From NCBI RefSeq assembly GCF_965229075.1, contig NZ_CBDDIO010000001.1, positions 1,104,674 through 1,168,673 on the forward strand: a stretch of 64,000 bases of DNA, read 5' to 3'. Under the pieces are notes generated by a model. The model saw nothing but the letters and a program-made list of their open reading frames with translations, was not told where the DNA came from and did not search any database. The position numbers were made by a program, and so were the translations under genes. Numbering within the stretch: the first letter of the stretch is position 1; every line of letters begins with the position of its first letter. The stretch comes from Ancylobacter sp. Its GTDB lineage: Bacteria; Pseudomonadota; Alphaproteobacteria; Rhizobiales; Xanthobacteraceae. This document shows positions 28,226 to 45,755 of this stretch, in pieces.

Positions 28226-29923
28226 TCACGGGGAAGGGTGGCCGAGTGGTTTAAGGCAGCGGTCTTGAAAACCGCCGTGGGTGCAAGCCCACCGTGGGTT
28301 CGAATCCCACCCCTTCCGCCATTTCAGTCCCAAACTGGGCACGCCAAGCGTAGCCGATTTCCCTCCTGAGACGGCAGCCAGCGTTCGGAGCAGGTCTCCC
28401 TTTGATCCGATGATGCGGACTTCCTTGGCTCCGACTTCCACGCGCTGAGCCAAGGCGCGCAAATGGTCGCGCCGGTAGCCGCCGCCTTCGATGCGCATGC
28501 GCTTGCGAGCGATGTCGGCGAAACGCGCCACCATGGCCGGCGTGACGGCATCTTCGCCTGAGGTGGCAAGCGAGGTCTGCGCTCGGGCAGCATCGGCCTG
28601 TGCGTGATCGCGGATCGCCTTGAGCCCGTCGATCCGCTCTTTCAGCGCCGGATCGGTGATGTCTGCCACGCCTGATTCGATGGCGTCATACAGCCGGCGC
28701 AGCCGCTGATCGGCTTCGCTAGCGCGCTTGGTGAGTTCAGCAATGTGCTCGCGGCGGCGCTCAAGACGCTCCTGACGGTGGTCGAGCATGGAAGCGAGGA
28801 TCTCCTGCAGCCGCTCGGGCTGAAGAAGCCGCTGCTCGATGTGGCTCGCCACCAGCGTGTCGAGCGTCTCCATCGGTATGGCGCGGCCGGCACAGCCGGT
28901 CTCGCCCTGCCGCGCCTTAATCGAGCAGGCATAGTAGCGGTAGCGCCCGCTCTTACCGGTGCGGATGGTCATGGCCCCGCCGCACTGCGCGCAATAGCAG
29001 ATGCCGGTGAGCAGCGTCGGGCCACTCACCACCCGCGGCGGGACGATTTTGGGGTTGCGCGCCTGAAGCTGCTCCTGCACGGCGTCGAAGACCTTGGTGT
29101 CGATGAGCGGCGGCACGGCGACCACCACCACCTCGCTCTCGGGCTTCTTCTGCTTGGTTTTGGAGCGGCTGTTGAACTGATGCTCGCCCATATAGGTGCG
29201 GCGGGTCAGCACCCGGTGAAGCTGCCCGATACCCCAACGCCCGCCCTCGCGGGTGTAGATCCGGTTGCGGTTGAGATGACTGACGATGGCCTTCACGCCC
29301 ATCGGACCGGAGCGGCCATCGCCATTGAGGGCGAGATCGAAGATGAGCCGCACCGTGTCGGCGTGAAGCGGATCGATCTCCAGCTTCTTCTTCACCTTGG
29401 CACCGCGTTGCTCGGCTTCAACGACGCGATAGCCGATCGGCGGACGGGCGCCATTCCAGAAGCCTTGCCTGGCATTCTCTTTCTGCGCCCGCAGGACGTG
29501 CTTGGCGTTCTCCTTCGACTGGTACTCGTCGAACAGCGCCATGATCTGACGCATCATGACGTGCATCGGGTCGTCGCCCATCTCCTGGGTGATCGACACC
29601 AGCCGCACGCCATTGCGGGCGAGCTTCCTGACATAGAACTCAAGCTCAAAGTGATCGCGGAAGAAGCGCGAGAAGCTGTGCACCACCACGACATCGAAGG
29701 GCGCCGGCTTCAGCGTGCCAGCTTCGATCATCCGCTGGAATTCGGGCCGACGATCATTGGTCGCCGAGGCGCCCGGTTCGACATAAGTTTCGACCAGTTG
29801 ATAGCCGCGAGCTTGGCAGTACGCCTCGCCCTGCCGGCGCTGATCGGGAATTGAGACATCGTGCTCGGCTTGCCGGGCTGTGGAGACGCGCAGATACAAA
29901 GCGGCACGCAGCGGAGCGGTCAT
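28226..29923 (-). CDS. large serine recombinase (resolvase/invertase catalytic domain + recombinase + zinc-ribbon + coiled coil)
   Basis: It has the catalytic-Ser motif AALYLRVSTARQ, a recombinase domain, the zinc-ribbon CYCAQCGGAM...YYACS and a coiled-coil C-terminus. The ORF has no stop until it has run antisense across the whole tRNA-Ser gene. Confidence 0.9.
   Translation of the reverse strand: MTAPLRAALYLRVSTARQAEHDVSIPDQRRQGEAYCQARGYQLVETYVEPGASATNDRRPEFQRMIEAGTLKPAPFDVVVVHSFSRFFRDHFELEFYVRKLARNGVRLVSITQEMGDDPMHVMMRQIMALFDEYQSKENAKHVLRAQKENARQGFWNGARPPIGYRVVEAEQRGAKVKKKLEIDPLHADTVRLIFDLALNGDGRSGPMGVKAIVSHLNRNRIYTREGGRWGIGQLHRVLTRRTYMGEHQFNSRSKTKQKKPESEVVVVAVPPLIDTKVFDAVQEQLQARNPKIVPPRVVSGPTLLTGICYCAQCGGAMTIRTGKSGRYRYYACSIKARQGETGCAGRAIPMETLDTLVASHIEQRLLQPERLQEILASMLDHRQERLERRREHIAELTKRASEADQRLRRLYDAIESGVADITDPALKERIDGLKAIRDHAQADAARAQTSLATSGEDAVTPAMVARFADIARKRMRIEGGGYRRDHLRALAQRVEVGAKEVRIIGSKGDLLRTLAAVSGGKSATLGVPSLGLKWRKGWDSNPRWACTHGGFQDRCLKPLGHPSP
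28232..28321 (+). tRNA. tRNA-Ser (anticodon UGA)
   Basis: 90-nt cloverleaf. Acceptor GGAAGGG/CCCTTCC; D-arm GCCGAGTGGTTTAAGGC; anticodon stem GCGGT/ACCGC with loop CTTGAAA (anticodon TGA). It has a long type-II variable arm, T-arm GTGGG-TTCGAAT-CCCAC, and an encoded CCA. Confidence 0.9.
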
Positions 29924-29947
29924 GGCGAAGCCTTTCGTGTCAGGCGG

Positions 29948-30229
29948 TCATTCCCCTTGGATCAACTCCTCCAGAATATCCCCGAACCACGCCTCGAAGA
30001 CAGCAATCTCCGCCTCTGTCACCGGAATGTATTCCGGCCAGTCGTCGGTGATGGTCAGGGGGGCGGAGGCTGGGGGCGACCGTGTCCGGCGGCGGGGCGG
30101 CGGCGTCTCCGCGTAGGTGTAGAGATTGTCGGGCAAGCGGCCGGTCGGGAGGCGGCGCGTGGAGTCGAAAGTGGGTGGACGCTCGTATCTGGTCATCCCA
30201 TAGATTGCGATGACAAGGGGCAAGGCCAC
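29948..30229 (-). CDS. small hypothetical protein upstream of the recombinase
   Basis: 93-aa ORF (or 82 aa from ATG 30196) on the same strand, 25 nt upstream of the recombinase. It has no clear RBS and no recognised motif. Confidence 0.3.
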   Translation of the reverse strand: MALPLVIAIYGMTRYERPPTFDSTRRLPTGRLPDNLYTYAETPPPRRRTRSPPASAPLTITDDWPEYIPVTEAEIAVFEAWFGDILEELIQGE

Positions 30230-30508
30230 ATAACCGCTCTGTATCCGGCGATACGCAGCGCTTCTAAGGCCTCTATGGAAGGCCCGAGATATTGCCCTTA
30301 CACTGCGAGGTTAAGAGTCTTGGGAGCCCTGATGGCACTTGAGGAGGCAGGACGTAGGGACTTTCGCTAACGGTCCGAGACCGATCGAACGGTGGTAATG
30401 CTGCCTTAGACAGTCTCTGAAGGGCTGCGTGATTAAGACTTCCGCTCCCCCCGTCATTTCGCCGCACTCGCCGGTGCGGTACCAAAATAGCGCGGCCCTA
30501 GCGGCGCA

Positions 30509-30537
30509 TTGAAACACCTAAGTGCAATAGCTAAATC
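30509..30537 (+). promoter_or_regulatory. candidate sigma70-type promoter for the nuclease-NTPase gene
   Basis: TTGAAA (30509-30514), a 17-nt spacer, then TAAATC (30532-30537), about 100 nt upstream of ATG 30635. Called by eye only. Confidence 0.3.
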
Positions 30538-30634
30538 ACTATCGTACCCAATCTTTTCCATCCTGGGTACGATTGACATTGCACCCCAATGGCCAGCATT
30601 TTTGCCCTACGTTTGTTTGGGGGTGATATCTGGA

Positions 30635-33136
30635 ATGGCCCATGGCGATGACGTTCTGGTGCGGCTGCGCGAAATAATCGATGACGTCAAAGACCGCTCT
30701 CTTAACGAAGCTGATACCCGGCACCGGGTAATCGACTTCGTTTTGCATGACGTTCTCGCGTGGCCGCGCAATCGAACGGCTGTGGAGGAGTATGTCGCCC
30801 CGGGTTATGCCGATTTCGTATTGAAGCGCGCAGATGGGGACCCACTGATTCTCGTAGAGGCCAAACGGGATGGCTCGTATTTCAATCTTCCAAATCCCGT
30901 GAACCAATCCGAAACGTCCGGATATATTTCTATAAAAAAGTTACTAACAGATAACAATATCAAATCTGCGATGCAGCAAGTTCGATTTTACTGTCAAGAT
31001 CTTGGCTGCGAATTCGCGGCCATAACCAATGGGCACGAATGGATATTTTTTAAAACGTTCGAGCGTGGAAAAAAATGGGAAACGTTGCAAGCTTTTGTAG
31101 CGCGAAGCGTGTCTTTCTTTGATATTGAATATACGCGCGCCTATAATTCATTTTCATATACAGCTATTTCAGAAAGCTTTTCACTTCAAACCGTCCTAAA
31201 TAGCTCTCCCCCGCGAGATAGGACAATCTACTACGCGAAAGATCGTATTCCCTCATATTCGCATCCAATTACGGCGAACAAATTAGCTTCTGCTCTACGA
31301 CCTATTGTTAATCATTATTTTGGTGTTATTGAGGATAGCGATACGGAATTTATGGATCGCTGCTATGTATCTCATAGAGACTATCATCATACATTTGATG
31401 GGATGAGGACTTTAATTGAAGACTCCCTTTCACCTTACTTGAAATCGTATGGTGTCCGGCCCTTAGACGAAACCGGAAAGGGCGGGCAACTTGGAGGGCG
31501 TCTGACTAAAAACATCAAACGAGGACGCAAGGGAGAGGTTCTCGTCCTGTTTGGTGGCAAGGGGGCCGGAAAGTCGACATTTATCAAGCGCCTCCTGCAC
31601 CACACGCCTCCGCGCTGGTTGCGCGACCACTCGGTGATTGCGATCGTCGACCTTCTTAAGGTGCCAGAAGAGCCCGAAGTAATTCGTCGAGCGATCTGGG
31701 ACGGGCTCGTCGCCGGCCTTGACACAGAAGGGCTCTTGGCCGCCGACCGAAGCGCTTTGCTGGACAAGCTTTTTACAGATCGCTTCGAGATTGCGTCGCG
31801 CCAGGAACTGTCAGGGCTTTCAAGGGCATCGGACGCGTACAATGCACGCCTTAATGAACTTGTTTCAGGCTGGAAAGCTGATAAAAAATATTGCGCCAAA
31901 CGTCTAATGAATTATTGGAAATGTCAAGACGTTGGACTTATAGTTGTAATCGATAATACTGATCAATATTCTGGCCCAAATCAGGATTTTTGTTTTACTT
32001 CGGCTCAAGAGATTGCTGACGAACTTGAATGCGTCACCTTAATCTCAATGAGAGAAGAGCGGTTTCATAATTCGAAAATCCATGGCCTGCTGGACGCGTT
32101 CCAGAACGCGGGCTTCCACATAAGCTCCCCGAAGCCCGCAGAGGTATTCCGAAAGCGACTGGAGTACGTTGTGTCACTCCTATCGAATTCATCGAGGAAC
32201 GAGGATCTGACAAATGGAGCTCCTGAGGAACTCGTCAATGACTGCATAAAATATCTGAGCATCATTAATCGGGATTTTCATAACGAAAAATCACCTTTGA
32301 ATAATTTTCTTACAGCGTGCGCTCACGGAGATATAAGACTATCTCTTGATCTTTTCAGAGCATTCCTTCTATCAGGGTACACCAATGTCGAAGAAATGCT
32401 CGCCGCTGGAAAATGGAACTTCCTGATACATCAGGTCATAAAACCTGTAATGATACCTACTAGGTATTATTATGACGAAATGTTAAGCGACATACCAAAT
32501 ATATATCAACTACGAGATAACCGCAGAAGTTCACATTTTACCTCAATGCGCATTCTTAGAAAACTCGCGCACAATGTGGAAAGCGGCGTGGCGACGTACC
32601 TATCAATGGCTGAACTGAAGTCGTACTTCTCAGAAACGTTCGCCATGATAGATGACTTCACAAAGAACGTTGATGTTTTGCTGAAACACGGATTCGTAGA
32701 GGCCGACAATCGGCTCGATGTATATTCGACAGATGTCGACCGCATAAAAATAACGGGATACGGCCTGTATATGATAAGTGAACTGGCTTACTCGTTCACG
32801 TATCTTGATCTTATCTGTACGGATTGCGGCGTCTATGACGAGCCTGTCAGTAATTATCTGGTTGAGGCTGCGAAATCTGAGTATGGACTATTTAATCAGA
32901 ATGAGAGATTTGAGCGTGTTAAGTTGCGCCTTGAGAGAGTTGATAGATTCCTGCAGTATCTTGAGAAGGAGGAACGCGAGGAGCGCACCTTTTTTGGATT
33001 GCGCTTTCCGGACGAAGAGCTTTTTACGTTCAAATGTCGTGAGGCATTTAAAGTTGAAAGTGCGCGTGTCGTTGCTAGCGCTACCAAAAATCGCGCAGTC
33101 AATCGACCGCGTAGTCGTCGCGCTCCTGGCCGCTGA
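30635..33136 (+). CDS. PD-(D/E)xK nuclease (HsdR-N/Mrr-like) fused to a P-loop (STAND-like) NTPase with a helical C-terminal domain
   Basis: The N-terminus reads NEADTRHRVIDFVL...YADFVL...LILVEAKRDG...FAAITNGHEWIFF, which is the HSDR_N-type D...ExK nuclease core (D codon 30812, E 30857, K 30863). Walker A is FGGKGAGKST (31553-31579), Walker B is LIVVIDNTDQ (31937-31966), followed by TLISMRE. About 330 aa of C-terminal helical region follow. I prefer ATG 30635 (GGGGGTGA upstream) over the ORF start at 30509. Confidence 0.7.
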   Translation: MAHGDDVLVRLREIIDDVKDRSLNEADTRHRVIDFVLHDVLAWPRNRTAVEEYVAPGYADFVLKRADGDPLILVEAKRDGSYFNLPNPVNQSETSGYISIKKLLTDNNIKSAMQQVRFYCQDLGCEFAAITNGHEWIFFKTFERGKKWETLQAFVARSVSFFDIEYTRAYNSFSYTAISESFSLQTVLNSSPPRDRTIYYAKDRIPSYSHPITANKLASALRPIVNHYFGVIEDSDTEFMDRCYVSHRDYHHTFDGMRTLIEDSLSPYLKSYGVRPLDETGKGGQLGGRLTKNIKRGRKGEVLVLFGGKGAGKSTFIKRLLHHTPPRWLRDHSVIAIVDLLKVPEEPEVIRRAIWDGLVAGLDTEGLLAADRSALLDKLFTDRFEIASRQELSGLSRASDAYNARLNELVSGWKADKKYCAKRLMNYWKCQDVGLIVVIDNTDQYSGPNQDFCFTSAQEIADELECVTLISMREERFHNSKIHGLLDAFQNAGFHISSPKPAEVFRKRLEYVVSLLSNSSRNEDLTNGAPEELVNDCIKYLSIINRDFHNEKSPLNNFLTACAHGDIRLSLDLFRAFLLSGYTNVEEMLAAGKWNFLIHQVIKPVMIPTRYYYDEMLSDIPNIYQLRDNRRSSHFTSMRILRKLAHNVESGVATYLSMAELKSYFSETFAMIDDFTKNVDVLLKHGFVEADNRLDVYSTDVDRIKITGYGLYMISELAYSFTYLDLICTDCGVYDEPVSNYLVEAAKSEYGLFNQNERFERVKLRLERVDRFLQYLEKEEREERTFFGLRFPDEELFTFKCREAFKVESARVVASATKNRAVNRPRSRRAPGR

Positions 33137-33252
33137 TTGTCGAAGCAGTTGCGCCAAAGTATGCTTAAGACTATGATGGCAAGAGCGTTGAGCGGAGCAG
33201 CCGTATTAGATATGGCGCCGGCGGTCCGACTTTTTGCAACGGCTGATTTTGA

Positions 33253-35313
33253 TTATAACCCCAGCCCTCGCGATCTTCCGAGATCCCACTCGATACCGCC
33301 ATCTCCACGCATGACACCGGAAAGGTGGCGGCCGATCTGCTTGTCGAGCACAGGCTGCCAGGGCACCAGCTGGAAGCCGAGCCCGTCTTCCAGCATGGCG
33401 AAGCGACCGGAGACGAGTTGTAGCTGGCGGGTGACAGTGCCGGAGACATATTCGCCGCGACCGGACGGCCGGTAAGTCAAGCCTGTGGACCTGGCGAGGT
33501 CGGCGGCGACGCGCTCCACCTCGCGGCGCTGAAGCCGGTTGAGGAGGTCGGGCGCCTCGATGCCACCGCCCGGCTGCCGCGTGGCGAGTCCCATGTCGAC
33601 GAGTGTGTTACGGCGCTGGTCGACGGCAAGGCTGACATCCAGGCCAAAGCCGTCGGTAGAGCGGGGCGTGGGTGAGATGATCTCCTGATCGAGCCAGGTG
33701 GCGCCCTCGACACCAATCTGCCGGTCGAGCGAGAGCTGCGAGGCGATCCGAATGTTGGGGCCTTCGCCCGCCAGCGCGCGGTCATAGGCGAGGCCGCGCT
33801 CGGGGAGGTTCTTCGGGATGGTCCAGTGCTCCGCATGAACCCGCTCGACATGACCGGCGCGCCGCAGTGCTTCCAGTCGCCGGACATGCGAGCGGATATA
33901 GGCCTCAGCGTCCTTGCCCTGTTCTGTGAAGCGGTCGCGGATGTGGGCGAGGTGCGTGCTCGGGCTATAAATGCCATCCGCGTCCGCGTTTTGTTGGATG
34001 TTCAGATCGACCGCGCGGGGCTGAGTGATCGGCGGCGTCACCTCGACGATCATGCCGCGCTGGAGACCTTCGAGCCTGGCGGCGTCCGGGAACTCGACAT
34101 GGTGGACGCGAGCGTCGATGCCATCGACCACGAGATAGGTAGTCTCGTTCAGGCCGTCTCCGGCCAGTCCCTTGCCCAGCACCCGGCCGGTGAGTGTCTG
34201 CTCCGGCGCGTGCCCATGGCGGACAAATTGGCTGGTGCCGCGCTCGTCGCCGAGGCCATTGTCTTCGATGGCCTGGTGCATGGAGCGGATGACGTCGTTG
34301 CGGGCTTCGATCTCGTTGAGAATCGCTTCCGTGCGTGGCGCGAGGATCCACTCGCCGGGGAGGTCCTCGGTGGCGAGGCCATAACCCTCCAGCTTGCGAA
34401 GCCGGCCGATGAGGAGGTTCTGGTTCTCCCGGATCAGCCGGTTGCCGCTGGTGAAGAGGTCGACGACGCCCTCGCGCTCCTGTTCCTGGATCAAGATACG
34501 ATCCAGCCGGGTAAGGCGCTCTGCCTCGACCTCGGAGGCGAGCTTCTGCTGCAGCTCCACCTCGCTCTGCGGGCCGAGTTCACGGGTGATGATGTCGCTG
34601 GCGCGGTGGCGTATCCCATGGGCGATGTAGTCGCCCGCTATGGTGAGGGTACGTCCCTCATCGGTGACGCCGCGCACCAGCACATGGGTGTGGGGATGGC
34701 CAGTGTTGTGATGATCGACCGCGATCCAGTCGAGCTTGGTACCGAGATCATTCTCCATCTGCCCCATGAGCTCACGCGTGAAGCCTCTGAGGTCGCCGAG
34801 CTCCAGCCCATCTTCCGGCGCGACGATGAAGCGGAACTGGTGGCGGTCCTCGCGTCCGCGCTCCAGGAAAGCTTTGCCATCGGCCACATCCTCGAACGCC
34901 GAATAGCAGCGACCCTTCTGCCGGTCGGGCGTCACACCGTCGCGCTGGAGATAGCGCAGATGGGCGTCGACCGCCTTGGCGGAAGTGCCGACCGTCTTGC
35001 GACCGCCGCGCCCCCGCACGACGCCGAGTTTCACCACCCGCGCCTTAACCACCACGCGGCGAGAGCGGTGTCGTCCACCGGCATCGACCTTCCAGCCGCG
35101 GTCAACACCGGAAAGCGCGCCCGCTGCCCGGACGCCGCGACCGCGGGCGTTGTAACGCCCGCTTCCTTTCCGGCCTGACCAGCCGCCGGCCTCGCGCGCG
35201 GCAATCTCGACCTGGCGCCGGAACGGTAGCGTCGCAAGGCTGCTCTGTCGCATGCCGCGCTGACGAATCCGGCCGGGGCGGACCCTGAACCTGTCGCTGT
35301 TGTCCTGTGCCAT
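33253..35313 (-). CDS. MOB relaxase / mobilization nuclease with DUF3363-like C-terminal domain
   Basis: It has an Arg-rich N-terminus, the relaxase His-triad motif WIAVDHHNTGHPHTHVLVRG, and a long C-terminal extension as in alphaproteobacterial relaxase/DUF3363 proteins. Confidence 0.8.
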   Translation of the reverse strand: MAQDNSDRFRVRPGRIRQRGMRQSSLATLPFRRQVEIAAREAGGWSGRKGSGRYNARGRGVRAAGALSGVDRGWKVDAGGRHRSRRVVVKARVVKLGVVRGRGGRKTVGTSAKAVDAHLRYLQRDGVTPDRQKGRCYSAFEDVADGKAFLERGREDRHQFRFIVAPEDGLELGDLRGFTRELMGQMENDLGTKLDWIAVDHHNTGHPHTHVLVRGVTDEGRTLTIAGDYIAHGIRHRASDIITRELGPQSEVELQQKLASEVEAERLTRLDRILIQEQEREGVVDLFTSGNRLIRENQNLLIGRLRKLEGYGLATEDLPGEWILAPRTEAILNEIEARNDVIRSMHQAIEDNGLGDERGTSQFVRHGHAPEQTLTGRVLGKGLAGDGLNETTYLVVDGIDARVHHVEFPDAARLEGLQRGMIVEVTPPITQPRAVDLNIQQNADADGIYSPSTHLAHIRDRFTEQGKDAEAYIRSHVRRLEALRRAGHVERVHAEHWTIPKNLPERGLAYDRALAGEGPNIRIASQLSLDRQIGVEGATWLDQEIISPTPRSTDGFGLDVSLAVDQRRNTLVDMGLATRQPGGGIEAPDLLNRLQRREVERVAADLARSTGLTYRPSGRGEYVSGTVTRQLQLVSGRFAMLEDGLGFQLVPWQPVLDKQIGRHLSGVMRGDGGIEWDLGRSRGLGL

Positions 35314-35549
35314 GCCGGCACGATGAGGGGCATCACCTTAGAGTATCAAGCGTAGAAAAGGCGAGTTCGCAAAGCAGCGTGAAAAGACCTGCCATGGCGG
35401 GCTAAGGGCGGAGCGCACATTGCGGTTTAGGTCAATCAACCCCAGTCCGATCAGAGCCTTAGATCAACCGACCGGCTTGCCAGCACCCTGCGATTCACGC
35501 TGGGCACCGTACCTCAACCTGCTGAAACCAATGTGCAGACAAACATATA

Positions 35550-35580
35550 ATGTCGCCAGACATTGCGATCGGCAGATCGC
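35550..35580. promoter_or_regulatory. tandem short hairpins in the AT-rich region upstream of the relaxase (candidate oriT or operator)
   Basis: ATGTC-gcca-GACAT (35550-35563) is followed immediately by GCGATC-ggca-GATCGC (35565-35580). They sit in a 650-bp non-coding, AT-richer stretch between the relaxase and RHH genes. Confidence 0.25.
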
Positions 35581-35970
35581 TTTATCTTGCCCTCAATTTC
35601 CTAAGCCTCACTGTCAATAATCTAATTCCGACAATACCCGCCGAATATACTAATAGGTAATGACCGAGAAGACCACGTTCTGGCCAGCGGGAGCCGCTGA
35701 TACGCTGCCGGCACCGAGGCTACCACGACCGCCGTCGGATGCGAGATCAGCGATGCAGTGGATTGACGGTCAAACGCCATTCAAGCGGCAGCCCAACCCG
35801 CGCCGAGGTCTGCACTGGTGATGCCAATGGATGTCCATCGCCGTGCAGAAACCTTGCAGAGAAACCGTCGTCGAACTGCACAGAGGTAGCGGCCTTTTGT
35901 GCACGCGAGCAGCAATGCTGGGAAGCATGAGGTGCTGGCGGTTGATCGTAGAAGTTCGCCGATCTCGGTA

Positions 35971-36159
35971 TCATTTGCCGCGCTTAGGCTCGGTAACCTC
36001 TTGCGATTTTTCGGCGACGGAGATGCCGCGACGCTCGGCATATTCGAGCAACGCAACTTCAATCAAAGCCGTAATGGATCGCCGCTCCGCGTCAGCAAGC
36101 TGGCGCGCCAGCGCGAGTACGTCAGCATCAATGCGGGTAGTGAAGGGCTGTTTCGTCAT
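35971..36159 (-). CDS. ribbon-helix-helix (CopG/Arc/MetJ-type) protein
   Basis: 62 aa from ATG 36159. MTKQPFTTRIDADVLALARQLADAERRSITALIEVALLEYAERR shows a beta-strand followed by two helices. It could be a relaxosome accessory protein or an antitoxin-type regulator. Confidence 0.65.
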   Translation of the reverse strand: MTKQPFTTRIDADVLALARQLADAERRSITALIEVALLEYAERRGISVAEKSQEVTEPKRGK

Positions 36160-36291
36160 CGGCCTTATTGCTTGCGATCCGGCATAGTTCGAGGCAGAGT
36201 CATGCACGTGCAGTGCACGTACAACGGCCGGGGTGAGTGCGCGAACACCCAACCCGGCCTGACCACAACCAAGCTGATTGGAGCTCGGATC

Positions 36292-36957
36292 ATGGCTGAT
36301 TCTGAGATTAGCACGAGTCTGTCCCGGCCATCCCGGAGGGGCGTTCTCTATGCCGTCCTGCTGACGATCGGCGGCACGTCATTCAACAGTTCGTCTGCGG
36401 CGACGCCGCAAGATGACAGCGCAACGGATGCCGCCGTCCTCGCGTGGAAAGGGTGGCGCGCCGCGCATAGGCGCACGCTTGCCCTGTGTCGGAAACAGCA
36501 ACGTCTGGAGTCCGAACTCGTGCGGAAGATCGGCTTTCCACAGGCGGTTCTGGCTGCAGCCGAACTACCGTCACCGGTGCGGATCGCCTCCTTGCGCCAG
36601 TTCGATGAGCTTGCGGGCAATGTTCCGTCGCTTTGCGCGCGGCGCGCCGAAGTCGCGGAGGCGCTGCGCGCACATCAGCAGCGCTGGGACGACGCAGATC
36701 GTGCCATCGGCTACTCCGTCACCCGGCAGGAAGAGGCGGCGGCATCCGCCGATGAAGAGCGCCTGATCGCGGGGCTTTTTGCGGCAAACGCGACGTCTCT
36801 GCGCGGCCTCTCCGCAAAGCTCGACGTGCTGATCGCCGTCGGCGCGGATGGCGCCGAGGGGCGGCATTTCCCGTGGCCCGAACTACGGCGCATCCGCCGG
36901 GATGTTACGCGCTTGATGCAGCTGCAGCGTCACGATGCAGTCGGCTTCACTGCTTGA
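36292..36957 (+). CDS. hypothetical protein with RR-containing leader
   Basis: 221 aa from ATG 36292. It has the N-terminus SRPSRRGVLYAVLLTIGG, then an Ala/Arg-rich helical sequence with no recognised domain. Its 3' end overlaps the convergent HNH gene by 11 nt. Confidence 0.4.
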   Translation: MADSEISTSLSRPSRRGVLYAVLLTIGGTSFNSSSAATPQDDSATDAAVLAWKGWRAAHRRTLALCRKQQRLESELVRKIGFPQAVLAAAELPSPVRIASLRQFDELAGNVPSLCARRAEVAEALRAHQQRWDDADRAIGYSVTRQEEAAASADEERLIAGLFAANATSLRGLSAKLDVLIAVGADGAEGRHFPWPELRRIRRDVTRLMQLQRHDAVGFTA

Positions 36958-37846
36958 AGCAGTGCTCGCGATGCCAGCGCAGGAAGTGGGGATGCGGACG
37001 CTCGAACGCCCGTTGCGGGGCAATTGCGCGCCCGCTCCGATTGATGAAGGCGCGCACGCCGTCGGGATCGTTGGCGTGCCGGGAGATCAGCACGTCGAGA
37101 TCGTCCGTCAGACTGATCAGCCCCCGGTCAAACATCCAGTGTGCCGTACCTGACAAAGCCAATCCATTGCTGACGATATCCGGACCGTTCGCCTGAACCG
37201 GCTGAATATGCGCCGCCGCGACCTCGGCCCGCCCGCCGCCATTGATGAGTTTCAAGCCACTGATGGCGCACCGCTCATCATAGGCGCGCAGCACGATGCG
37301 GCGGAAGACACGATCCCGCACCATCCGCGACGAAAGATAGCTGACGCGCTCCCTGCTCTCCTCGTACGCGAACGGAGCCTGTTCTTCGCTGAATCCGTTC
37401 GGACGCACATCGGTATCCGTGCGCGGAAGCAGCGGCTCGCGGTCATCGAGGCCTCGCGCGACGATGCGGTCGAAATCACCCGCGGAGAGCGGTCGAACCG
37501 CAGCCTGGGCACGGCCGGAAATCCGCCCATCTTCGTTCAGAACGCCACGCTCAATGACGCCACCATCACCGCCAAAGGGCACCGGGCTGACGAAGTCGAG
37601 ATAACTACCCGGCTCGATCAGCGCGAGAAACATGCCCGGCGCCGTCGGATCGGGAACAACGCGCTCCACCTTCGCGATGGCGAAGTAACCCCGCGTGTCC
37701 GCCACCTTCCGCGGCTCGTAATAGACGATCCAATCGCCAACGCAGGCCTCGACGCGGCCGAGATACTGCCGAGGGAACTGGTACCGCTCAGCCGGGCTAT
37801 CGTCATAGATCGAGTCTGTACGATGGATGAAAACGCCGAATCCCAT
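36947..37846 (-). CDS. HNH endonuclease (HNH_2-type) with an N-terminal PUA-like reader domain; likely modification-dependent restriction enzyme
   Basis: The C-terminus reads CAISGLKL......AAHIQPV...GPD.VSNGLALSGTAHWMFDRGLISL, an HNH_2 core. The N-terminal ~130 aa (GDWIVYYEPRK...RGYFAIAKVERVVPDP) looks like a small beta-barrel. Confidence 0.75.
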   Translation of the reverse strand: MGFGVFIHRTDSIYDDSPAERYQFPRQYLGRVEACVGDWIVYYEPRKVADTRGYFAIAKVERVVPDPTAPGMFLALIEPGSYLDFVSPVPFGGDGGVIERGVLNEDGRISGRAQAAVRPLSAGDFDRIVARGLDDREPLLPRTDTDVRPNGFSEEQAPFAYEESRERVSYLSSRMVRDRVFRRIVLRAYDERCAISGLKLINGGGRAEVAAAHIQPVQANGPDIVSNGLALSGTAHWMFDRGLISLTDDLDVLISRHANDPDGVRAFINRSGRAIAPQRAFERPHPHFLRWHREHCFKQ

Positions 37847-38283
37847 GACACGATCTTACCGCGCTATCCCGCGCTGGCGAGCGCGTAAGGAGCCGTTCGC
37901 TCCAGGAGACAGTACGCTGTGGCGAGGACGAATGCCCGGTTTGGGGCCGGTAGCCGACTGTCCGCTATTGGGGATCTCAAACGAGAAGCGGACATATCGC
38001 CAAATAATACCCGAGGCCGGAGCTGACCCTTTGCTGACATTGGGAGAGTCCGCTCTGCGTACATAAGCCTATCCTCAAGTGTAGTTTCAAGTTGTGGCTC
38101 CACCCCTCAAAACCCGCCTGCAGTCTTGAAAGTAACCTTAGTCTGGCTATCTCTGCTTCCACCTCAGTCCTGGCCGTTCGTAGTTCGGACAAGCGAGTTT
38201 GCAACAGCCTGAGCTGATCCGGCCACTTCTTGGTTTCGAAGGGAGTGTGGCGGCGACTGAAGTTGGATGGGCGTCGCGTGACG

Positions 38284-39441
38284 CTATCGGTTCCAATCGA
38301 CGGCGTTTAGCTGCCGGTACAGGGTTGCCCCGTAGTCCTTGTCTACCTGATGGGCGAAAGCGATTAGCCCCTCGATATGGCGCCGCATGCCAATGGTCGA
38401 GGCGAACCCCCGCTTCGCTCTGTGGGCGGCGGCGCCGACCTTCGGGTTCGCGAGCGCGAAAAGATGAGTTTCGACGTTGTTGCGGAACTCGCGCGTCAGC
38501 CTCGGCTGCTCCCGGTCGACCAGCACGCCGAGCAGAACCTTTCGGGCACCCGGCGGGACGATCGTCGTCTTTTCGCGATTGTTGATCAGCCCGAACTTCA
38601 CCAGCTCATGCTCCACCGCCTTCGCCAGATGCATTGCCTCTCCCCTGGCCGAGGCGTTGCGGCGGGAAAAGGCGAGATCGTCTGCGTACCGCGTGTAGGT
38701 CCAACCGCCCCGCGCTGCCAAGGCTTCGATGCGGCGATCCAGCGGCCACATAACGAGGTTCGCGAGCATTGGGCTCGTCGGAGCGCCCTGCGGCAGATGC
38801 CCTTGCCGATGTCGCCGGTATGGGAGACCCGTGTCCCCGCGCCCTTCCTGCAGCCTGACGTCACTGGTCTGATGTTGCGCCAGGCGCGTGCAGACACGCG
38901 CCATCTGGAATGAAAGCAACGCCCCGTAACCGAGCGACCGGAACACCCGATAAACCCGACGCTCGGGGATGGACTCGAAAAAGTGGCGGACATCCATCTT
39001 CACCAACCACTTCGCTTCGACATGCCGCTTCGCTGCACCGACCAAGTCGCGACCAGGCGCGAACGCGTAGCTTGCGGGGTGCGGCGGGACGGCGTTCAGG
39101 ATGTTCTGTGCGATCCAGCGCTGCGCCCGCATGAGGTCCTGGTGGGGCACGCATATCGTCCGGTAGCGCCGTGGTGGCGCCGCCACGCCGTTGGGCGTAC
39201 CGCGCTTCTTCACCCGGAACACGCGGTATGAGTCCTCCTTGCGGAAGGCGACGGCCTGCAAGGCCTCGATCGGTACTCCGGCCAAATGTGCGAGGTGTCC
39301 TAGGGTCAGGATAACTGGAAGGTCGGGATTGGTCCGCTTGATCGCGTCTGCAGCGGCTTCGGCGGCGGCGATCAGACCCTCGCTTCGCCCTTCAGCGCGC
39401 GCCCCCTCGCGGAACCGTTGAGAACTCCACGGGTGCTTCAT
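38284..39441 (-). CDS. reverse transcriptase, retron-type
   Basis: It has the RT motifs LPQGAPTSPMLANL and WTYTRYADDLAFS (YADD codons at 38677-38688). It also has YRVFRVKKRG...RYRTICVPHQDLMRAQRWI and GLINNREKT...ARKVLLGVLV, which are collinear with retron RTs such as Ec86. Confidence 0.8.
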   Translation of the reverse strand: MKHPWSSQRFREGARAEGRSEGLIAAAEAAADAIKRTNPDLPVILTLGHLAHLAGVPIEALQAVAFRKEDSYRVFRVKKRGTPNGVAAPPRRYRTICVPHQDLMRAQRWIAQNILNAVPPHPASYAFAPGRDLVGAAKRHVEAKWLVKMDVRHFFESIPERRVYRVFRSLGYGALLSFQMARVCTRLAQHQTSDVRLQEGRGDTGLPYRRHRQGHLPQGAPTSPMLANLVMWPLDRRIEALAARGGWTYTRYADDLAFSRRNASARGEAMHLAKAVEHELVKFGLINNREKTTIVPPGARKVLLGVLVDREQPRLTREFRNNVETHLFALANPKVGAAAHRAKRGFASTIGMRRHIEGLIAFAHQVDKDYGATLYRQLNAVDWNR

Positions 39442-39607
39442 CTACTTGAGTCCAGCCCTGGTGGGCGTCGCTTCCACCATCGAACCGAGCCCCCGAGGAG
39501 GTTCCCGATAGGGAACGATGGCGGAAGCGACGTGGACCTGCGATCAGCAGCTCTAACAGTGGCGACCGGAAGCCCGGTCCCCCTCGACAATGAGTTCGTA
39601 CCCATCA
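39442..39607 (-). ncRNA. candidate retron msr-msd non-coding RNA (structured spacer upstream of the RT)
   Basis: On the minus-strand transcript there is a short hairpin GACCGG-GCUU-CCGGUC (39579-39564). It is followed by a 17-bp stem (39532-39516 pairing with 39482-39466) that encloses a GUUCCC-UAUC-GGGAAC hairpin. The single non-Watson-Crick pair is G-U only in the minus-strand sense. I did not identify a1/a2 repeats or the branching G. Confidence 0.35.
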
Positions 39608-40894
39608 TCACGGCCGCCCAAAAGGACGGCGGGTGCTAGACGAAGCCCGCGGAGTTCTCAGTTCGGACGGATAATATGGAACGGTAGAGGTTGCAATACT
39701 CGGCCGTTTTCGCTCAAGCCGCCGCGCAGCTTCCAGCATTTGATGCCCGGCGTCTGTGAGGCGCCCTTGTTTGGTGATCAACTTTGCGCGCAGCGCTCTC
39801 AGCACGATCTCCATCACGTCCGGCGTGGTCATTCCGGTCCGCTCAGAGAGCGCGATTTCCTTTCCGCGCCACCAGCGTCCACGCATGGCGGACAAGACGA
39901 GAACCGTCGCAGCATCCGCCTCAGCCAACCCCGGCGTGATCCGAATGCCCATGCTGGCCGCCGCGGAGGTGATGACGTCGCTCATCCGACGGAGGCCGAA
40001 TGCCGGGCGCAGGTCGTCGGGCGCCGGCCCGTCGTAGAGCGCGCGCCAGGTGCTAGTCGACTTATGGAGCAGCGCCGGCGTGTTATTGGGGAGGCGGTAG
40101 TTGAATGCCGCCAGGGCGGAGGTGTTTCCGAAGCCCCACCGGCTCGCACCGCGTCCCGTATCCGGGCCGTAGCGGTTAATCAGTGAAAACCAGCGGTCCG
40201 CTTGGCGCCAGTCGCCTGCCTTTACGATGGTCGGTGCGACGTGCTCGACACGCACATCCGGCCGCAGGCGGTGGCGCCGAACGCTCGTGATGCCGGCGTC
40301 TGTCCCTGCCGCGGCCACAACGCAAAAATCAATCCATCCTCGGGAGCGCCACGCACGGATGGTGGGGACCGCCCACAAGGCGTCGAGCATCGACCTCACC
40401 CGGCTGCCGGATCCGATGAAGTCCGTGACCAGCGCTATAGTCCCTGCGGGCGCGGTCTTGCCGCGCAGCAGGTTGGGCCCTGGGTGGTTCATAAAGATGG
40501 CCGGCCGCGCCTCCTTAGCCTGAGAGATGACAAAGCCGACGAGGCCCTCGCTGCCGACCCGCGTCCCGCCACGAAGGGGTTTGACTGCCGGAGGTCCAGC
40601 CCGACCAACGGCGCGGTAATGGCGTCGGCCCTTCGCATCTAAAGTTACGGTGCTCTGGAAGAAGGCTGCTTGCCCCATCTCGCGCTCGGCGTAGAGCGCG
40701 ACCCGACGTCGGAAACCGGAGCGACCGTCCGCCAGCGCGTAGAGTTGAGAGCGGATCGCTGCGCTGACCTGCTCTTCGTTTAGCAAGAGCATGGCGTCCA
40801 GCAACGCCGCAGCGTCGACCGCGTCGGCCGCCAGGAACTGCCGTAGCCATTGCTGCGACGTCTCGTAAGACGACAGCGGCGCTCGCGAGCTCAA
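39608..40894 (-). CDS. phosphoribosyltransferase-like protein with C-terminal winged-helix domain
   Basis: It has a PRPP-loop-like motif GTIALVTDFIGSGSRVRSMLDAL and a C-terminal wHTH-like segment MTTPDVMEIVLRALRAKLITKQGRLTDAGHQMLE. The preferred start is TTG 40894 (AAGGGA 7 nt upstream), which overlaps the helicase TGA. An alternative ATG is at 40792. Confidence 0.5.
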   Translation of the reverse strand: MSSRAPLSSYETSQQWLRQFLAADAVDAAALLDAMLLLNEEQVSAAIRSQLYALADGRSGFRRRVALYAEREMGQAAFFQSTVTLDAKGRRHYRAVGRAGPPAVKPLRGGTRVGSEGLVGFVISQAKEARPAIFMNHPGPNLLRGKTAPAGTIALVTDFIGSGSRVRSMLDALWAVPTIRAWRSRGWIDFCVVAAAGTDAGITSVRRHRLRPDVRVEHVAPTIVKAGDWRQADRWFSLINRYGPDTGRGASRWGFGNTSALAAFNYRLPNNTPALLHKSTSTWRALYDGPAPDDLRPAFGLRRMSDVITSAAASMGIRITPGLAEADAATVLVLSAMRGRWWRGKEIALSERTGMTTPDVMEIVLRALRAKLITKQGRLTDAGHQMLEAARRLERKRPSIATSTVPYYPSELRTPRASSSTRRPFGRP

Positions 40895-42642
40895 ATGGCA
40901 ATCCCTTCTACGATAGCTTCGCCGAACCACGCCTGGACCTTGCCCATCGCCACGGGCGAAAGCTGCTGGGTGAACAGCAGCGCCAACCGCTTCTTCGGCC
41001 TGGAGCACGCCACGTAGAAGAGATTGCGGTTGCGCTCGAACATCTCTGCGCGGGCCGCCGGCACGCCATTGACCGCCAGCTCCAGCATCTCCCCAAAATT
41101 GTACTGGTTCCACCCGCGTCCGATCACGACGAGCACATTCTCAAATTCCTGTCCCTTGACCCCGTGCTTCGTCTCGAACGGCGAGTGTCCGCAGAGATAG
41201 GCGCGAAGGGCTTTGATCTCGGCATACTGCACGCCATGCAGGGCCTCTGTCTCCGTTAGGTAGCGCGGCATGGGTTCGCCAGCGTCCGGATCAAAGGCGC
41301 GCAGGTCGCGCTCACGGTCTGCGACGGCATCGGGGGGCCGCGGGCGCCGGGTCTGCATCAGGTGACCGATAACCTCCCCGACGGTCCCGTTGGCCCTCAG
41401 CTGATCCAGCGCCTGAAAGGACGCCCCCCACGCCGCCTTGTCCGCCGTTCGACGCAGGTGCGGGGCGGTGCCCAGGACATCGAACATCTCGCCAAACCGC
41501 CGGGCCGCAAATGCATCGCAAGCGGGCTCCAGCACATCGACCAGGTAGGCGATGTGTGGATTCTCCTTCTTGGTGAAGGCGTCATTGAACTGGAAGACGC
41601 CTGGGAGGCTGGCGTAGCCCTGCTCAGCCGCCAACACCCGGTGGGTCAGCATCAGGACCTTGGTCCGGCTGGCGTCGAAGTCCCAACCATCCGCGACCAG
41701 CCGGGTTTTGACCCGGTCCAACGCCTGGTGAGCCACGGGCCCAGGCAGATCGCCACCCCAGTGGGCGCCGCCCTGTCGCTGTCCCACCCAACCGTTGGAA
41801 TGGAACACCCTGACCGAACCAGCCACAGTCGGATCGTCCACGAACTGCGGCAGCTCGGGTCGCATCCGGTTCAAGCAATCCACTACGACCTGCACAGACC
41901 GGAAATTGGCCTCCTTGCCGATCTCCTTGACCGCGGGATGTTCAAGCTTCCCGCATCCACCGTAGATTTTCTGCCAGTGGTCGCCGAAGAAGCCAAACTG
42001 CGGCGCGCCCGCCACGCCGAGGAAGTGGGCCTTGATCGCCTCCACCCAATCGGCGTCAGTATCCTGATACTCGTCGACCAGAATGACCGGATAGAGTTCC
42101 GACATCCGCTTCCGGAACTTGGCGTTCTCCATGAAGCGGATGGTCAGTGGCAGGATGTCGTCGTGGTGCAGGGACAGAACCCCGTCCCTGATGGACCGAT
42201 GGCCAAGGGTATACTCCACCGTGCGACCACCGATGCCGCCGACTTCGGCCAGACGGTCCTGCCATGTCGGGAGTTCGCTGACATAGGTGCGCAGATGCGC
42301 CTGCAGACCGTTGATTAGCGACCAACAGAACGCGTGATTGGTCTCGCAAAACACCGCCGGGTGGCGGTCGGTTCGCGCCTCGATCTCATCCTTGGCCACG
42401 TTGGTGAAGGTGATGCAGGCAACCTTCTGACTGCGGCGAACGAAAACCCGGCTCCGCTTCTCGATCAGCCAACCCAGCGCTTTCACGAGCGTGTAGGTCT
42501 TACCGGCGCCGGCGCCGGCTTCCAGTCTGAAGCTCTCGCCGTTTTCCAAACAGCCATAGACGGCTTCAAGGGCGACGCGGCTTGCCCTCTGTGCAGGAGT
42601 CTCGCCATCAGGCACCGGTCTGCTCCTCAGCCGTTGCCTCAT
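40891..42642 (-). CDS. UvrD/PcrA-like SF1 helicase (GajB-like)
   Basis: It has Walker A EAGAGAGKTYTL, motif II ILVDEYQDTD, then VKGQEFENVLVV and NLFYVACSRPKKRLALL. Its start overlaps the end of the OLD gene by 35 nt. Confidence 0.85.
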   Translation of the reverse strand: MRQRLRSRPVPDGETPAQRASRVALEAVYGCLENGESFRLEAGAGAGKTYTLVKALGWLIEKRSRVFVRRSQKVACITFTNVAKDEIEARTDRHPAVFCETNHAFCWSLINGLQAHLRTYVSELPTWQDRLAEVGGIGGRTVEYTLGHRSIRDGVLSLHHDDILPLTIRFMENAKFRKRMSELYPVILVDEYQDTDADWVEAIKAHFLGVAGAPQFGFFGDHWQKIYGGCGKLEHPAVKEIGKEANFRSVQVVVDCLNRMRPELPQFVDDPTVAGSVRVFHSNGWVGQRQGGAHWGGDLPGPVAHQALDRVKTRLVADGWDFDASRTKVLMLTHRVLAAEQGYASLPGVFQFNDAFTKKENPHIAYLVDVLEPACDAFAARRFGEMFDVLGTAPHLRRTADKAAWGASFQALDQLRANGTVGEVIGHLMQTRRPRPPDAVADRERDLRAFDPDAGEPMPRYLTETEALHGVQYAEIKALRAYLCGHSPFETKHGVKGQEFENVLVVIGRGWNQYNFGEMLELAVNGVPAARAEMFERNRNLFYVACSRPKKRLALLFTQQLSPVAMGKVQAWFGEAIVEGIAI

Positions 42643-44677: not shown

Positions 44678-44715
44678 GGCGTCCCCTCTAAGCAGCGGAC
44701 GTCTCTGCGTCCTAT

Positions 44716-44731
44716 TAGTGTGCCGACACTA
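44716..44731. promoter_or_regulatory. perfect 6-4-6 palindrome upstream of the OLD gene (candidate operator)
   Basis: TAGTGT-gccg-ACACTA lies 39-54 nt upstream of the GTG start of the first gene of the cluster. Confidence 0.3.
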
Positions 44732-45397
44732 CCTGAAAGAGTGCTGTGGTGCAGCTTGCGTCTCGGGGGAAATTCAACGATCACGTTCCGGCCACAGCAC
44801 GACCTTCGCCGATACCGGCATCGGGCCGCTGCAGCGTGGCGTTAGCAGCCTGTAGTTCTCGCGCGAGTGCCACCGGCTGTTCGGCTGCGGCATCCCATTC
44901 ACGAGCCCCTCTTGGCCTGGTCGGCCGGGTCAGACGGCCGCTGTAGAGTTACGGATGGTCGGCGTCGATGTGTGTCGCGAAGACGTGATCAAACCGGTCG
45001 GCGAAAATCTCTTGGACGACGCGTCGCGCGGGACGGCGCGAATAACGATTTTTTGCAGGTCACGACGGGCGGCGCAGGGATTGGCTCAACGTCCGCATTC
45101 TGCCCCTAAGCCAATGTCTTTTCATGGCGCAACCATGACCTCCAAGGCGGAAAGAACCCACGTCTGCTCTCAGGAATCTGCAAATCCGATTTCTACGGCC
45201 GAGATGGCGGCGCAAAGCGGATATCCCTGAAAGGCGGCGAGGGACAGGGACGGGCCAATGCGCGTCATAGGGTTATAGCGAACACATAGTTCTCTTCTTG
45301 GTCGCTCGCGGCCCGCCACTTTCACCCCGCCCGCCTTCAACCCTGGCACAATGCTGCGCCTCGTCGGACGGGCCGGTCCTGCCATTCTCGCAAACAG

Positions 45398-45429
45398 AAA
45401 GCCCGGAACCGTCTCCGGTACCGGGCTTT
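45398..45429 (-). terminator. rho-independent terminator downstream of minE
   Basis: AAAGCCCGG...CCGGGCTTT stem with T-rich runs on both strands, 54 nt downstream of the minE stop. Confidence 0.6.
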
Positions 45430-45482
45430 GATTTTCTCGGTGACAGGATTGGTCGCTGACGGGCGCTGCCGTCCCTGCCGCG

Positions 45483-45755
45483 TCAGGCGGCGCGGCTGAT
45501 CGCGAGATTGAGCTCGCCGCGCACCTCGACCTCGATTTCGAGGATCGACATCGGCGTCCCGCGCTCGAGGCGGACCTTCACATTGTCCTGCTCGCAGGGC
45601 ACATGCCGGGCCACGACGGCGAGGATATCCTCGCGCAGACGCGACAGCAGGTCGTCCCCGCCCACCACCTGGCGCTCATGGGACAGCAGAATCTGCAGCC
45701 GTTCCCGCGCCTGCGGGGCGGTACCCTGCGAGAAAAGGCGCTTCCACAAGGTCAT
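45483..45755 (-). CDS. minE: cell division topological specificity factor MinE
   Basis: 90 aa with the typical MinE sequence (ARERLQILLSHER...LREDILAVVARHV...). The start overlaps the minD stop. Confidence 0.9.
   Translation of the reverse strand: MTLWKRLFSQGTAPQARERLQILLSHERQVVGGDDLLSRLREDILAVVARHVPCEQDNVKVRLERGTPMSILEIEVEVRGELNLAISRAA

Follow-up and report, generated by a model that had tools for sequence, protein, structure and literature searches.

The DNA analysed here, hereafter called the window, is a stretch of 64,000 nucleotides (nt) from Ancylobacter sp. (contig NZ_CBDDIO010000001.1, positions 1,104,674 to 1,168,673 of the forward strand), and our subject is one gene in it, which encodes a protein of 833 amino acids (aa) with an HsdR-type PD-(D/E)xK nuclease domain, an AAA+/STAND-like P-loop NTPase and a C-terminal region containing a predicted winged helix. 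The gene is located in an island of ~17.5 kb (28226-45750; guanine-cytosine (GC) content of ~63% vs ~69% in the chromosome), which is limited by tRNA-Ser (28232-28321) on the left and by minD/minC (from 45752) on the right. As had been stated in an earlier reading of the same sequence (the original prediction), the gene stands alone there, between a recombinase gene and a convergent relaxase gene (Table 1). The island is an integrative mobilizable element (IME) carrying known defence systems, among them Gabija and a type III-A retron. The original prediction had made no mention of this cargo, which lends support by association to a role of the 833-aa protein in defence.

Table 1. Features of the gene for the 833-aa protein and of the island around it (window positions; aa numbers refer to the 833-aa protein; RT, reverse transcriptase; PRTase, phosphoribosyltransferase; wHTH, winged helix-turn-helix)
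Feature	Position	Strand	Basis or remark
Large serine recombinase	28226-29923	-	Neighbour on one side of the 833-aa gene
Shine-Dalgarno-like GGGGGTGA	30619-30626	+	8 nt 5' of the ATG; direct sequence reading
Complete open reading frame, 833 aa and stop	30635-33136	+	GC 46.4%
HsdR-N-type PD-(D/E)xK nuclease, aa ~20-160	30692-31114	+	Profiles, 3h1t alignment, model
Helical linker, aa ~161-283	31115-31483	+	Model secondary structure, conservation profile
AAA+/STAND-like NTPase base domain, aa ~284-500	31484-32134	+	Pfam, Foldseek, model
Walker A, G307-T315	31553-31579	+	Within NTPase base domain
Walker B, hhhhD440-N-x-D443-Q	31937-31966	+	Within NTPase base domain
R473/E474 directly after β4	32051-32056	+	Within NTPase base domain
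AAA+ lid, helical bundle, aa ~501-580	32135-32374	+	Alignments, model, Foldseek
Conserved connector, aa ~581-635	32375-32539	+	S580-G581, H599, N622, S633-H634
Winged-helix-like domain, aa ~636-730	32540-32824	+	Three helices and β-hairpin; model, Foldseek
Three long C-terminal helices, aa ~731-822	32825-33100	+	Models
Disordered Lys/Arg-rich tail	33101-33133	+	Alignment; predicted local distance difference test (pLDDT) <50 for residues 826-833
Relaxase/DUF3363 gene, convergent with the 833-aa gene	33253-35313	-	Neighbour on other side
HNH protein	36947-37846	-	PADLOC model match
Retron type III-A RT	38284-39441		Defence system in island
Retron PRTase-wHTH	39608-41113		Defence system in island
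Gabija GajB	40891-42642		E 1e-250
Gabija GajA	42608-44677		E 6e-275

The open reading frame (ORF) is uninterrupted from the ATG at 30635 to the stop codon at 33134-33136, and the strand opposite to it is crowded with stops. When homologues were aligned, their starts fell within a few residues of this ATG. RefSeq holds an identical 833-aa protein from Ancylobacter sp. (WP_421697770.1, "hypothetical protein"), and all the motif strings that the original prediction had quoted, namely NEADTRHRVIDFVL, YADFVL, LILVEAKRDG, FAAITNGHEWIFF, FGGKGAGKST, LIVVIDNTDQ, and TLISMRE, are found in it. The ORF is far beyond chance because hundreds of homologues exist and the motif residues are kept across divergent members; it is a real gene and was acquired horizontally, with the GC content descending from 68.6% in the surrounding chromosome through 63.3% in the island to 46.4% in the gene. 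A second public gene call for the locus starts at M113 (window position 30971) and gives a protein of 721 aa, from which the D60/E75/K77 nuclease motifs are cut off. Judged from the alignment, this shorter call is probably a start-site mis-annotation, and the 833-aa call of RefSeq agrees with the homologues. Also, nine sigma-70-like promoter matches were observed within 30900-32500 when both strands were considered, as against 3.4 ± 2.0 expected, and one of them, with 11/12 positions matching, lies at 31119-31147; the excess is probably a by-product of AT-richness. AT-rich regions with promoter-like matches are typical targets of xenogeneic silencers.

Domains were assigned with an AlphaFold2 model of the full-length protein built on a deep alignment (pLDDT, 90.6; predicted template modelling score, 0.79) and with conservation alignments of 58-77 members having 21-61% identity to the query. 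The N-terminus had been predicted as an HsdR-N/Mrr-type nuclease, which was borne out on several lines. Indeed, the isolated N-terminal domain matched Pfam HSDR_N_2 with 27.3 bits (cutoff, 25), and 22 and 21 of 33 diverse members matched HSDR_N_2 and HSDR_N, respectively. The nuclease profile was aligned with the structure of HsdR, the type I R-subunit (3h1t), with E=8.6e-4 over a range spanning the D...ExK and QxxxY motifs, and a Foldseek search against viral structures returned a phage protein described as "HsdR N-terminal domain" with a root mean square deviation of 4.7 over 198 columns. The core is predicted to have the order α-β-β-β-α-β, and E51, D60, E75, and K77 (D...ExK) as well as Q115 and Y119 (QxxxY) are invariant or nearly so. 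Since this catalytic set is intact and invariant, the domain is likely to be an active DNase. The subsequent linker (aa ~161-283) is poorly conserved except for N215 and C243-Y244, and it has no Pfam match and no recognisable family.

In the NTPase domain, G310, G312, K313, D440, N441, D443, Q444, R473, and E474 are invariant or nearly so, and the interval between β2 and β3 is occupied in the model by a helical insertion of ~95 residues. The window protein matched Pfam AAA_16 (1.9e-5), AAA_22 (2.7e-4), and, below the threshold, nSTAND6 (0.0098) and gave no match to NACHT (PF05729), the module of bNACHT proteins. Among 58 diverse members, matches were found to AAA_22 (47), AAA_16 (45), nSTAND5 (28), NACHT (21), ATPase_2 (20), KAP (15), and ORC-CDC6-like (2); those to nSTAND5 and NACHT are all sub-threshold (best NACHT E, 5e-6), NPHP3_N and nSTAND3/6 are among the weak matches across the family, and distant family members exceed the AAA_16 cutoff. 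When PDB was searched with the sequence and with the full-length profile, only P-loop matches were obtained (TsaE, ABCE1, dNK, weakly NLRP14, RdrA, and ORC4, the last with E=0.009 over the P-loop region only). Foldseek was run against PDB with the full-length model, and the top match was Cdc6 (1fnn, E=1.5e-6); the matches to Cdc6/Orc1 and ORC4/5, which include 7jpo_D, 4xgc_D, and 1w5s, had a probability of 1.0 and E values of 1.5e-6 to 4e-5. Cdc6 was followed by ORC4, ORC5, ORC1, and then Apaf-1 (~3e-5), and CED-4, RuvB, RFC, the ZAR1 resistosome (6j5t), RADAR RdrA, and TnsC came lower. The best structural neighbours are hence Cdc6/ORC and not the NLR/Avs proteins to which the original prediction had pointed.

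The lid contains two arginines, R508 and R568, that are invariant or nearly so, and R568 resides in the string HGDIRLSLDLF. We take the "GDxRxSL" around R568 to resemble the "GDAR..L" sensor-2 motif of Cdc6, which is of the Cdc6/clamp-loader type, and the Walker B sequence D-N-x-D-Q recalls the NACHT "DGxDE", as the arginine after β4 recalls R265 of Apaf-1. The description of the NTPase as STAND-like thus stands, given the Walker B pattern, the arginine after β4, and the sub-threshold nSTAND5 and NACHT matches mentioned above. Because the traits are mixed, two being STAND-like and one Cdc6/clamp-loader-like, the NTPase module is placed in the STAND/ORC-Cdc6 supergroup, and we force it into no clade.

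The C-terminal ~330 residues had been predicted as a helical trigger-recognition module, which is not supported as far as a module of the Avs kind is meant; instead, they resolve into the lid, connector, winged-helix-like domain, helices, and basic tail of Table 1. In the connector, which has no family or structural match, H599 and N622 are invariant or nearly so. Conservation of residues 576-725 equals that of the catalytic cores, and for the post-lid region this holds even where overall identity has fallen to ~22%. The segment after the lid thus ranks among the best-conserved parts of the protein, unlike a fast-evolving sensor, whereas the linker, the helices inserted between β2 and β3, the last helices, and a portion of the lid vary most. 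When residues 578-833 were modelled separately (pLDDT, 90.5) and submitted to Foldseek, the weak matches were uniformly to wHTH proteins, namely PadR, TcaR/MarR, ArsR, GntR, MukF/JetA, DEP, and MUS81-WH. The position of the domain at the C-terminus matches that of the DNA-binding wHTH in Cdc6/ORC, BrxC/DUF499, and SspC (PMC12839542, PMC10853773). The PadR-like matches include the helical extension at the C-terminus, and the three-helix bundle is possibly an oligomerisation or coiled-coil element. The tail is variable in sequence and yet basic in nearly all close homologues.

Proteins of this kind constitute a large family. Hundreds of full-length homologues with 60-76% identity were found in Alpha-, Beta-, and Gammaproteobacteria, nearly all of which are labelled "hypothetical", and a search of 1.84 billion representatives gave 1,503 clusters at 50% identity with E≤1e-3 and 341 with E≤1e-30. 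The layout of ~800-870 aa is kept down to ~25% identity; throughout the best 120-150 matches listed, the architecture is one and the same (nuclease, NTPase, and C-terminus), and no extra domains were found in atypically long relatives. Close relatives are nonetheless present in just 72 of ~185,000 reference species and are patchily distributed over at least seven phyla (Proteobacteria, Bacteroidota, Cyanobacteriota, Verrucomicrobiota, Planctomycetota, Desulfobacterota, and Actinomycetota). In six hosts examined, the GC content of the gene is 11-28 points under that of its flanks (e.g., 40.5% vs 68.4% in Pseudomonas aeruginosa). Members were found on 31 plasmids (14 conjugative ones included), but a search of 50,697 phage records gave none. 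In a betaproteobacterial metagenome-assembled genome (L070, 6001-9244), the match spans 3.2 kb vs 2.4 kb, which points to a possible interruption of or insertion in the gene, and Bradyrhizobium genosp. A (L086, 6001-6309) has only a fragment of 103 residues corresponding to aa 414-516; such interrupted and fragmentary copies are signs of decay in some lineages.

Ten genomic contexts of homologues were inspected gene by gene, and 506 neighbouring ORFs from 66 further loci were clustered. No conserved partner gene was found in the ten contexts, and no neighbour family is conserved in the 66 loci, where the most frequent neighbour was a tyrosine integrase (seven loci, with mixed side and orientation), followed by OLD/GajA-like ATPase-TOPRIM proteins, large serine recombinases, and IS200-like transposases (three loci each). 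Comparison of the flanks by blastn revealed no conservation of flanking DNA between loci, and no shared noncoding RNA or terminal repeats were found. The ORF alone is thus the unit of transfer, in line with the earlier description of an orphan gene. Of the 122 genes nearest to the homologues in the 66 loci, at least 6 match defence ATPases of the AriA/OLD/GajA/PtuA class (E≤1e-8), and others match the mad3 and NsnB models. The antiviral candidacy raised in the original prediction is hence plausible from the mobile and defence context.

The contexts themselves are diverse. In P. aeruginosa, the homologue is a lone insertion among psiE fragments in the core genome, and the exact protein is found in 415 blocks of the assembly collection; the gene (loci L001-L004, 10001-12487) is in a low-GC segment of ~3.5 kb with two or three psiE-like ORFs at its sides (84, 157/159, and 98 aa), which suggests that a psiE locus had been duplicated and that this copy was inserted within or next to it. 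The Burkholderia cepacia homologue is also a lone insertion among core genes, and those of Neptunomonas and Devosia adjoin an AlkZ-like gene and uvrB, respectively. In Bradyrhizobium, the gene is cargo of an integrase/AlpA/primase element, and the copies on a Klebsiella IncF plasmid and a Pantoea plasmid are in accessory regions with insertion sequence elements and recombinases. Large ABC-type ATPases were noticed directly beside homologues in three genera: an 899-aa PHP/AAA_15/AAA_21 ATPase together with an integrase in Asticcacaulis (L005, 5154-7853), a 748-aa AAA_13 ATPase (L012, 12714-14960) in Paraburkholderia, where the homologue is within an ICEclc-like integrative and conjugative element (ICE), and an 883-aa AAA_13/SMC_N ATPase in Pseudomonas tolaasii (L013, 6742-9393). 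No family of these ATPases is common to all loci, and each may be a defence gene in its own right that occupies the same hotspot as the homologue.

Several further observations were made on the island in the window. The 3' end of the serine recombinase gene (minus strand, stop at 28226-28228) overlaps the entire tRNA-Ser(TGA) (28232-28321, plus strand); this is explained either by an artefact of ORF extension affecting the final ~30 codons or by integration of the element at or into the tRNA gene. We found no att-type direct repeats of ≥16 nt bounding the island. The longest PRTase ORF shares ~220 nt (40891-41113) with the 3' end of gajB, but its PADLOC match begins at residue 78, so that translation of the PRTase probably starts a short distance downstream of the stop codon of gajB. 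In the Rfam search over the island, only the tRNA was found and nothing retron-like, and the msr/msd RNA was not located. A symR-like Rfam match at 36223-36297 (minus strand; 34.6 bits vs a gathering score of 61) lies inside the ORF at 35899-36957 and is probably due to chance. This ORF (plus strand, 352 aa) and that at 29861-30370 (plus strand, 169 aa) have no Pfam or PADLOC match.

How, then, does the family compare with the systems already described? No Pfam, NCBIfam, or PADLOC model names the 833-aa protein, and full-length scans gave sub-threshold or P-loop-level matches only. With PADLOC v2.0.0, whose models include Avs, bNACHT, BrxC, PglY, Ssp, and candidate PDC systems, nothing beyond the P-loop was matched in the window protein or its 58 relatives; membership in mad8 was also considered and rejected, as the match covers just 40 residues around Walker A. 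In the literature searched, recent defence-discovery papers included, this architecture is undescribed. Like Cdc6/Orc1 and ORC4/ORC5, the protein has the order of AAA+ base, lid, and winged helix (the last being weakly supported), an arginine in a "GDxRxxL"-type lid motif, and a helical insertion after β2. In contrast to Cdc6/ORC, its profile likeness to which is faint (see the ORC-CDC6-like count above), it has Walker B of D-N-x-D-Q and not D-E-x-D and adds the N-terminal nuclease, a linker of ~120 residues, a far larger β2-β3 insertion, the connector, and the C-terminal bundle; moreover, it is carried as cargo of mobile elements, unlike the replication initiators. The nuclease domain is homologous to that of HsdR with the same D...ExK and QxxxY motifs, but the superfamily 2 (SF2) helicase/translocase (ResIII/Helicase_C) is replaced by the AAA+ module, and HsdM/HsdS partners are absent.

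ORC/Cdc6-like AAA+ proteins with a helical bundle and wHTH are joined to restriction endonuclease (REase) folds in conflict systems (PMC10853773, PMC12839542). The family shares the ORC/Cdc6-like AAA+ module and the defence/mobile context with BrxC/DUF499 (BREX and BREX-related), SspC, the Orc/Cdc6-REase-HerA "capture" systems, and the NTPase-REase fusions of CR-effectors, but those are multi-gene or have the REase inserted or at the C-terminus, whereas the HsdR-type REase here is N-terminal in a stand-alone protein of ~830 aa. The pairing of an AAA+ NTPase with a PD-(D/E)xK nuclease and no methyltransferase also recalls McrBC, which differs in consisting of two subunits and in that McrB belongs to another clade of AAA+ proteins and reads DNA with an N-terminal domain of its own. 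In common with Avs/bNACHT, one gene residing in defence islands encodes both a nuclease effector, at the N-terminus, and a P-loop NTPase switch after it, and the NACHT-type Walker B, the arginine after β4, the weak nSTAND5/NACHT matches, and the structural matches to Apaf-1 and CED-4 are further likenesses; the differences are the putative Cdc6-like sensor-2 arginine, the lack of a match to any PADLOC Avs or bNACHT model, and the ~250 post-lid residues with a small, highly conserved, predicted wHTH in place of a large repeat sensor (TPR, WD40, or LRR). A catalogue of prokaryotic STAND proteins published in 2026 by Lee et al. describes 589 clades, 198 of which are defence-associated; only sensors of ≥400 aa were clustered there, and its main text mentions no HsdR-type or wHTH-only family (PMC13581612). 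The family is a new variant on the effector-NTPase theme and not a member of Avs/bNACHT, so that its proposal as a compact member or branch of that class is not upheld; of the division into effector, NTPase switch, and sensor, the first two parts serve well as a working analogy, but a sensor of the Avs kind is missing.

Taken together, we favour, at about even chances, the view that the protein is a self-contained and horizontally mobile defence enzyme, namely a DNA-directed and nucleotide-gated nuclease in which an HsdR-type PD-(D/E)xK DNase is tethered to a STAND/ORC-Cdc6 AAA+ switch with a lid and a winged helix. The DNA of an invader would be bound by the winged helix and the basic tail, the AAA+ modules would oligomerise on binding ATP by way of the conserved R473, R508, and R568, and oligomerisation would then pair the nuclease domains so that the bound DNA is cut. 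No methyltransferase or specificity gene is near the gene in the window, and self must therefore be told from non-self by some feature that marks foreign DNA or by gating of the enzyme. A more specific form of this proposal, which we put forward tentatively and consider doubtful, is a previously unrecognised class of single-chain immune nucleases, in which the ORC/Cdc6-like module and the winged helix load onto foreign DNA and fire the HsdR-type nuclease. Loading would resemble that of replication initiators and of TnsC/MuB on DNA; it could be aimed at intermediates of plasmid or phage replication, at DNA ends, or at DNA arriving by conjugation, and the enzyme would correspond to a restriction enzyme whose SF2 motor and self-marking by methylation are replaced by an initiator-type ATP switch.

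Several points weigh against the proposal of a DNA-directed defence nuclease. DNA binding by the winged helix is assumed by analogy, the Foldseek matches of the C-terminal model are all weak with none at ≤1e-3 (best E=0.02), and the C-terminal profile had no meaningful match to any solved structure when compared with PDB sequences. Sequence profiles favour the STAND families nSTAND5 and NACHT, and the characterised bacterial members of these families sense proteins and not DNA (PMC13581612). No discriminator of self from non-self was identified, and without tight gating an active DNase encoded on its own would be expected to harm its host. As for the context, the count of defence neighbours lacks a matched background control and is supportive only, and about four of the ten inspected contexts (P. 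aeruginosa, B. cepacia, Neptunomonas, and Devosia) are without a neighbouring defence or mobile-element gene.

One alternative, that of the original prediction, is an Avs/NLR-like receptor, in which the post-NTPase region binds a conserved phage protein; the binding would release autoinhibition, and the STAND module would oligomerise and degrade DNA indiscriminately as in abortive infection. The tripartite order of effector, NTPase, and C-terminal domain is indeed present, the weak profile matches (nSTAND5 and NACHT as counted above, NPHP3_N, KAP, and nSTAND3/6) and STAND-like motifs are consistent with it, and Apaf-1, CED-4, the ZAR1 resistosome, and RdrA are among the structural matches; nuclease effectors of the Mrr/REase type are, moreover, typical of Avs proteins (PMC13581612). 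The sensors of defence STAND proteins are usually large (PMC13581612), but the ~250 post-lid residues here comprise the wHTH and helices with no repeat-type or other large sensor, and their conservation equals that of the catalytic domains. No Avs/bNACHT model was matched in the 58 diverse members, Cdc6/ORC head the structural matches, and the putative sensor-2 arginine of the Cdc6 type is invariant, all of which makes us regard this receptor as unlikely. We give still less credit to a modification-dependent enzyme like those of type IV, in which the winged helix or connector would recognise phage DNA by modification of its bases or backbone while the AAA+ module acts as McrB (a nucleotide-driven assembly or translocation motor) and the nuclease as McrC in one chain. 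McrBC is a precedent for the pairing of an AAA+ protein with a PD-DxK nuclease, the absence of a cognate methyltransferase from every locus examined fits an attack on modified DNA, and fusions of winged helix and nuclease have been reported as type IV sensors dependent on N6-methyladenine (m6A; cited in PMC12191111). JGI and one plasmid record even label relatives as "predicted type IV restriction endonuclease", but these labels stem solely from the HsdR-N domain. No known reader (SRA, EVE, YTH, ASCH, SBD, or DUF4268) was found by Pfam in the window protein or the 58 members, the match to the SBD of ScoMcrA is insignificant (E=1.3), and neither the window protein nor the 58 members have a profile match to McrB or AAA_5, the AAA+ module being of another type.

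A function for the mobile element itself has also to be considered, for example in exclusion or destruction of competitor plasmids or ICEs or in replication, partition, or target choice as with ORC, TnsC, or MuB. The position of the window gene between the island recombinase and the relaxase would agree with this, as would the copies in ICE transfer regions and on conjugative plasmids, the absence from phages, and the kinship of the ORC/Cdc6 clade to the transposition regulators TnsC and MuB, the former of which is among the structural matches. Many copies are, however, lone insertions in core chromosomes with no element genes nearby, and the host elements are unrelated (a serine recombinase IME, tyrosine-integrase elements, an ICEclc-like ICE, and an IncF plasmid), so that the gene looks like cargo picked up by them and does not serve as part of their backbone. 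An intact DNase would furthermore be unexpected in a replication or partition factor, and we accordingly hold such a function to be quite improbable. A housekeeping enzyme of host DNA repair or recombination, whose architecture may also combine a nuclease, an ATPase, and a DNA-binding domain and for which the neighbouring AlkZ-like gene and uvrB can be counted, is hardly credible, given the strongly patchy distribution in the reference species, the atypical GC content in every host examined, the location on mobile elements and plasmids, and the lack of conserved synteny.

In conclusion, the 833-aa protein of Ancylobacter sp. most likely represents a new single-gene defence against foreign DNA; it is a strong candidate for a defence nuclease, which would probably be DNA-directed and ATP-gated. 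Even if this turned out to be wrong, a large and well-conserved family would remain to which no function is assigned and which current defence-finder models miss. If it is right, a widespread single-gene system, with ~1,500 clusters at 50% identity, would be added to the bacterial immune repertoire, and its sensing would be unlike that of the protein-sensing Avs/NLR proteins: the repeat sensor would give way to a small winged helix, which, with an ORC/Cdc6-like ATP switch, would be coupled to a type I restriction nuclease domain. The family is found on conjugative plasmids of Klebsiella, Serratia, and Acinetobacter, on ICEs, and on hundreds of P. aeruginosa contigs, and it could then matter for phage therapy and for the spread of plasmids in clinically relevant hosts. 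Such a system would also inform how the STAND and ORC/Cdc6 ATPases diverged in immunity and, if the loading onto DNA proved true, would represent a new and widespread defence family that bridges ORC/Cdc6 and STAND immunity.

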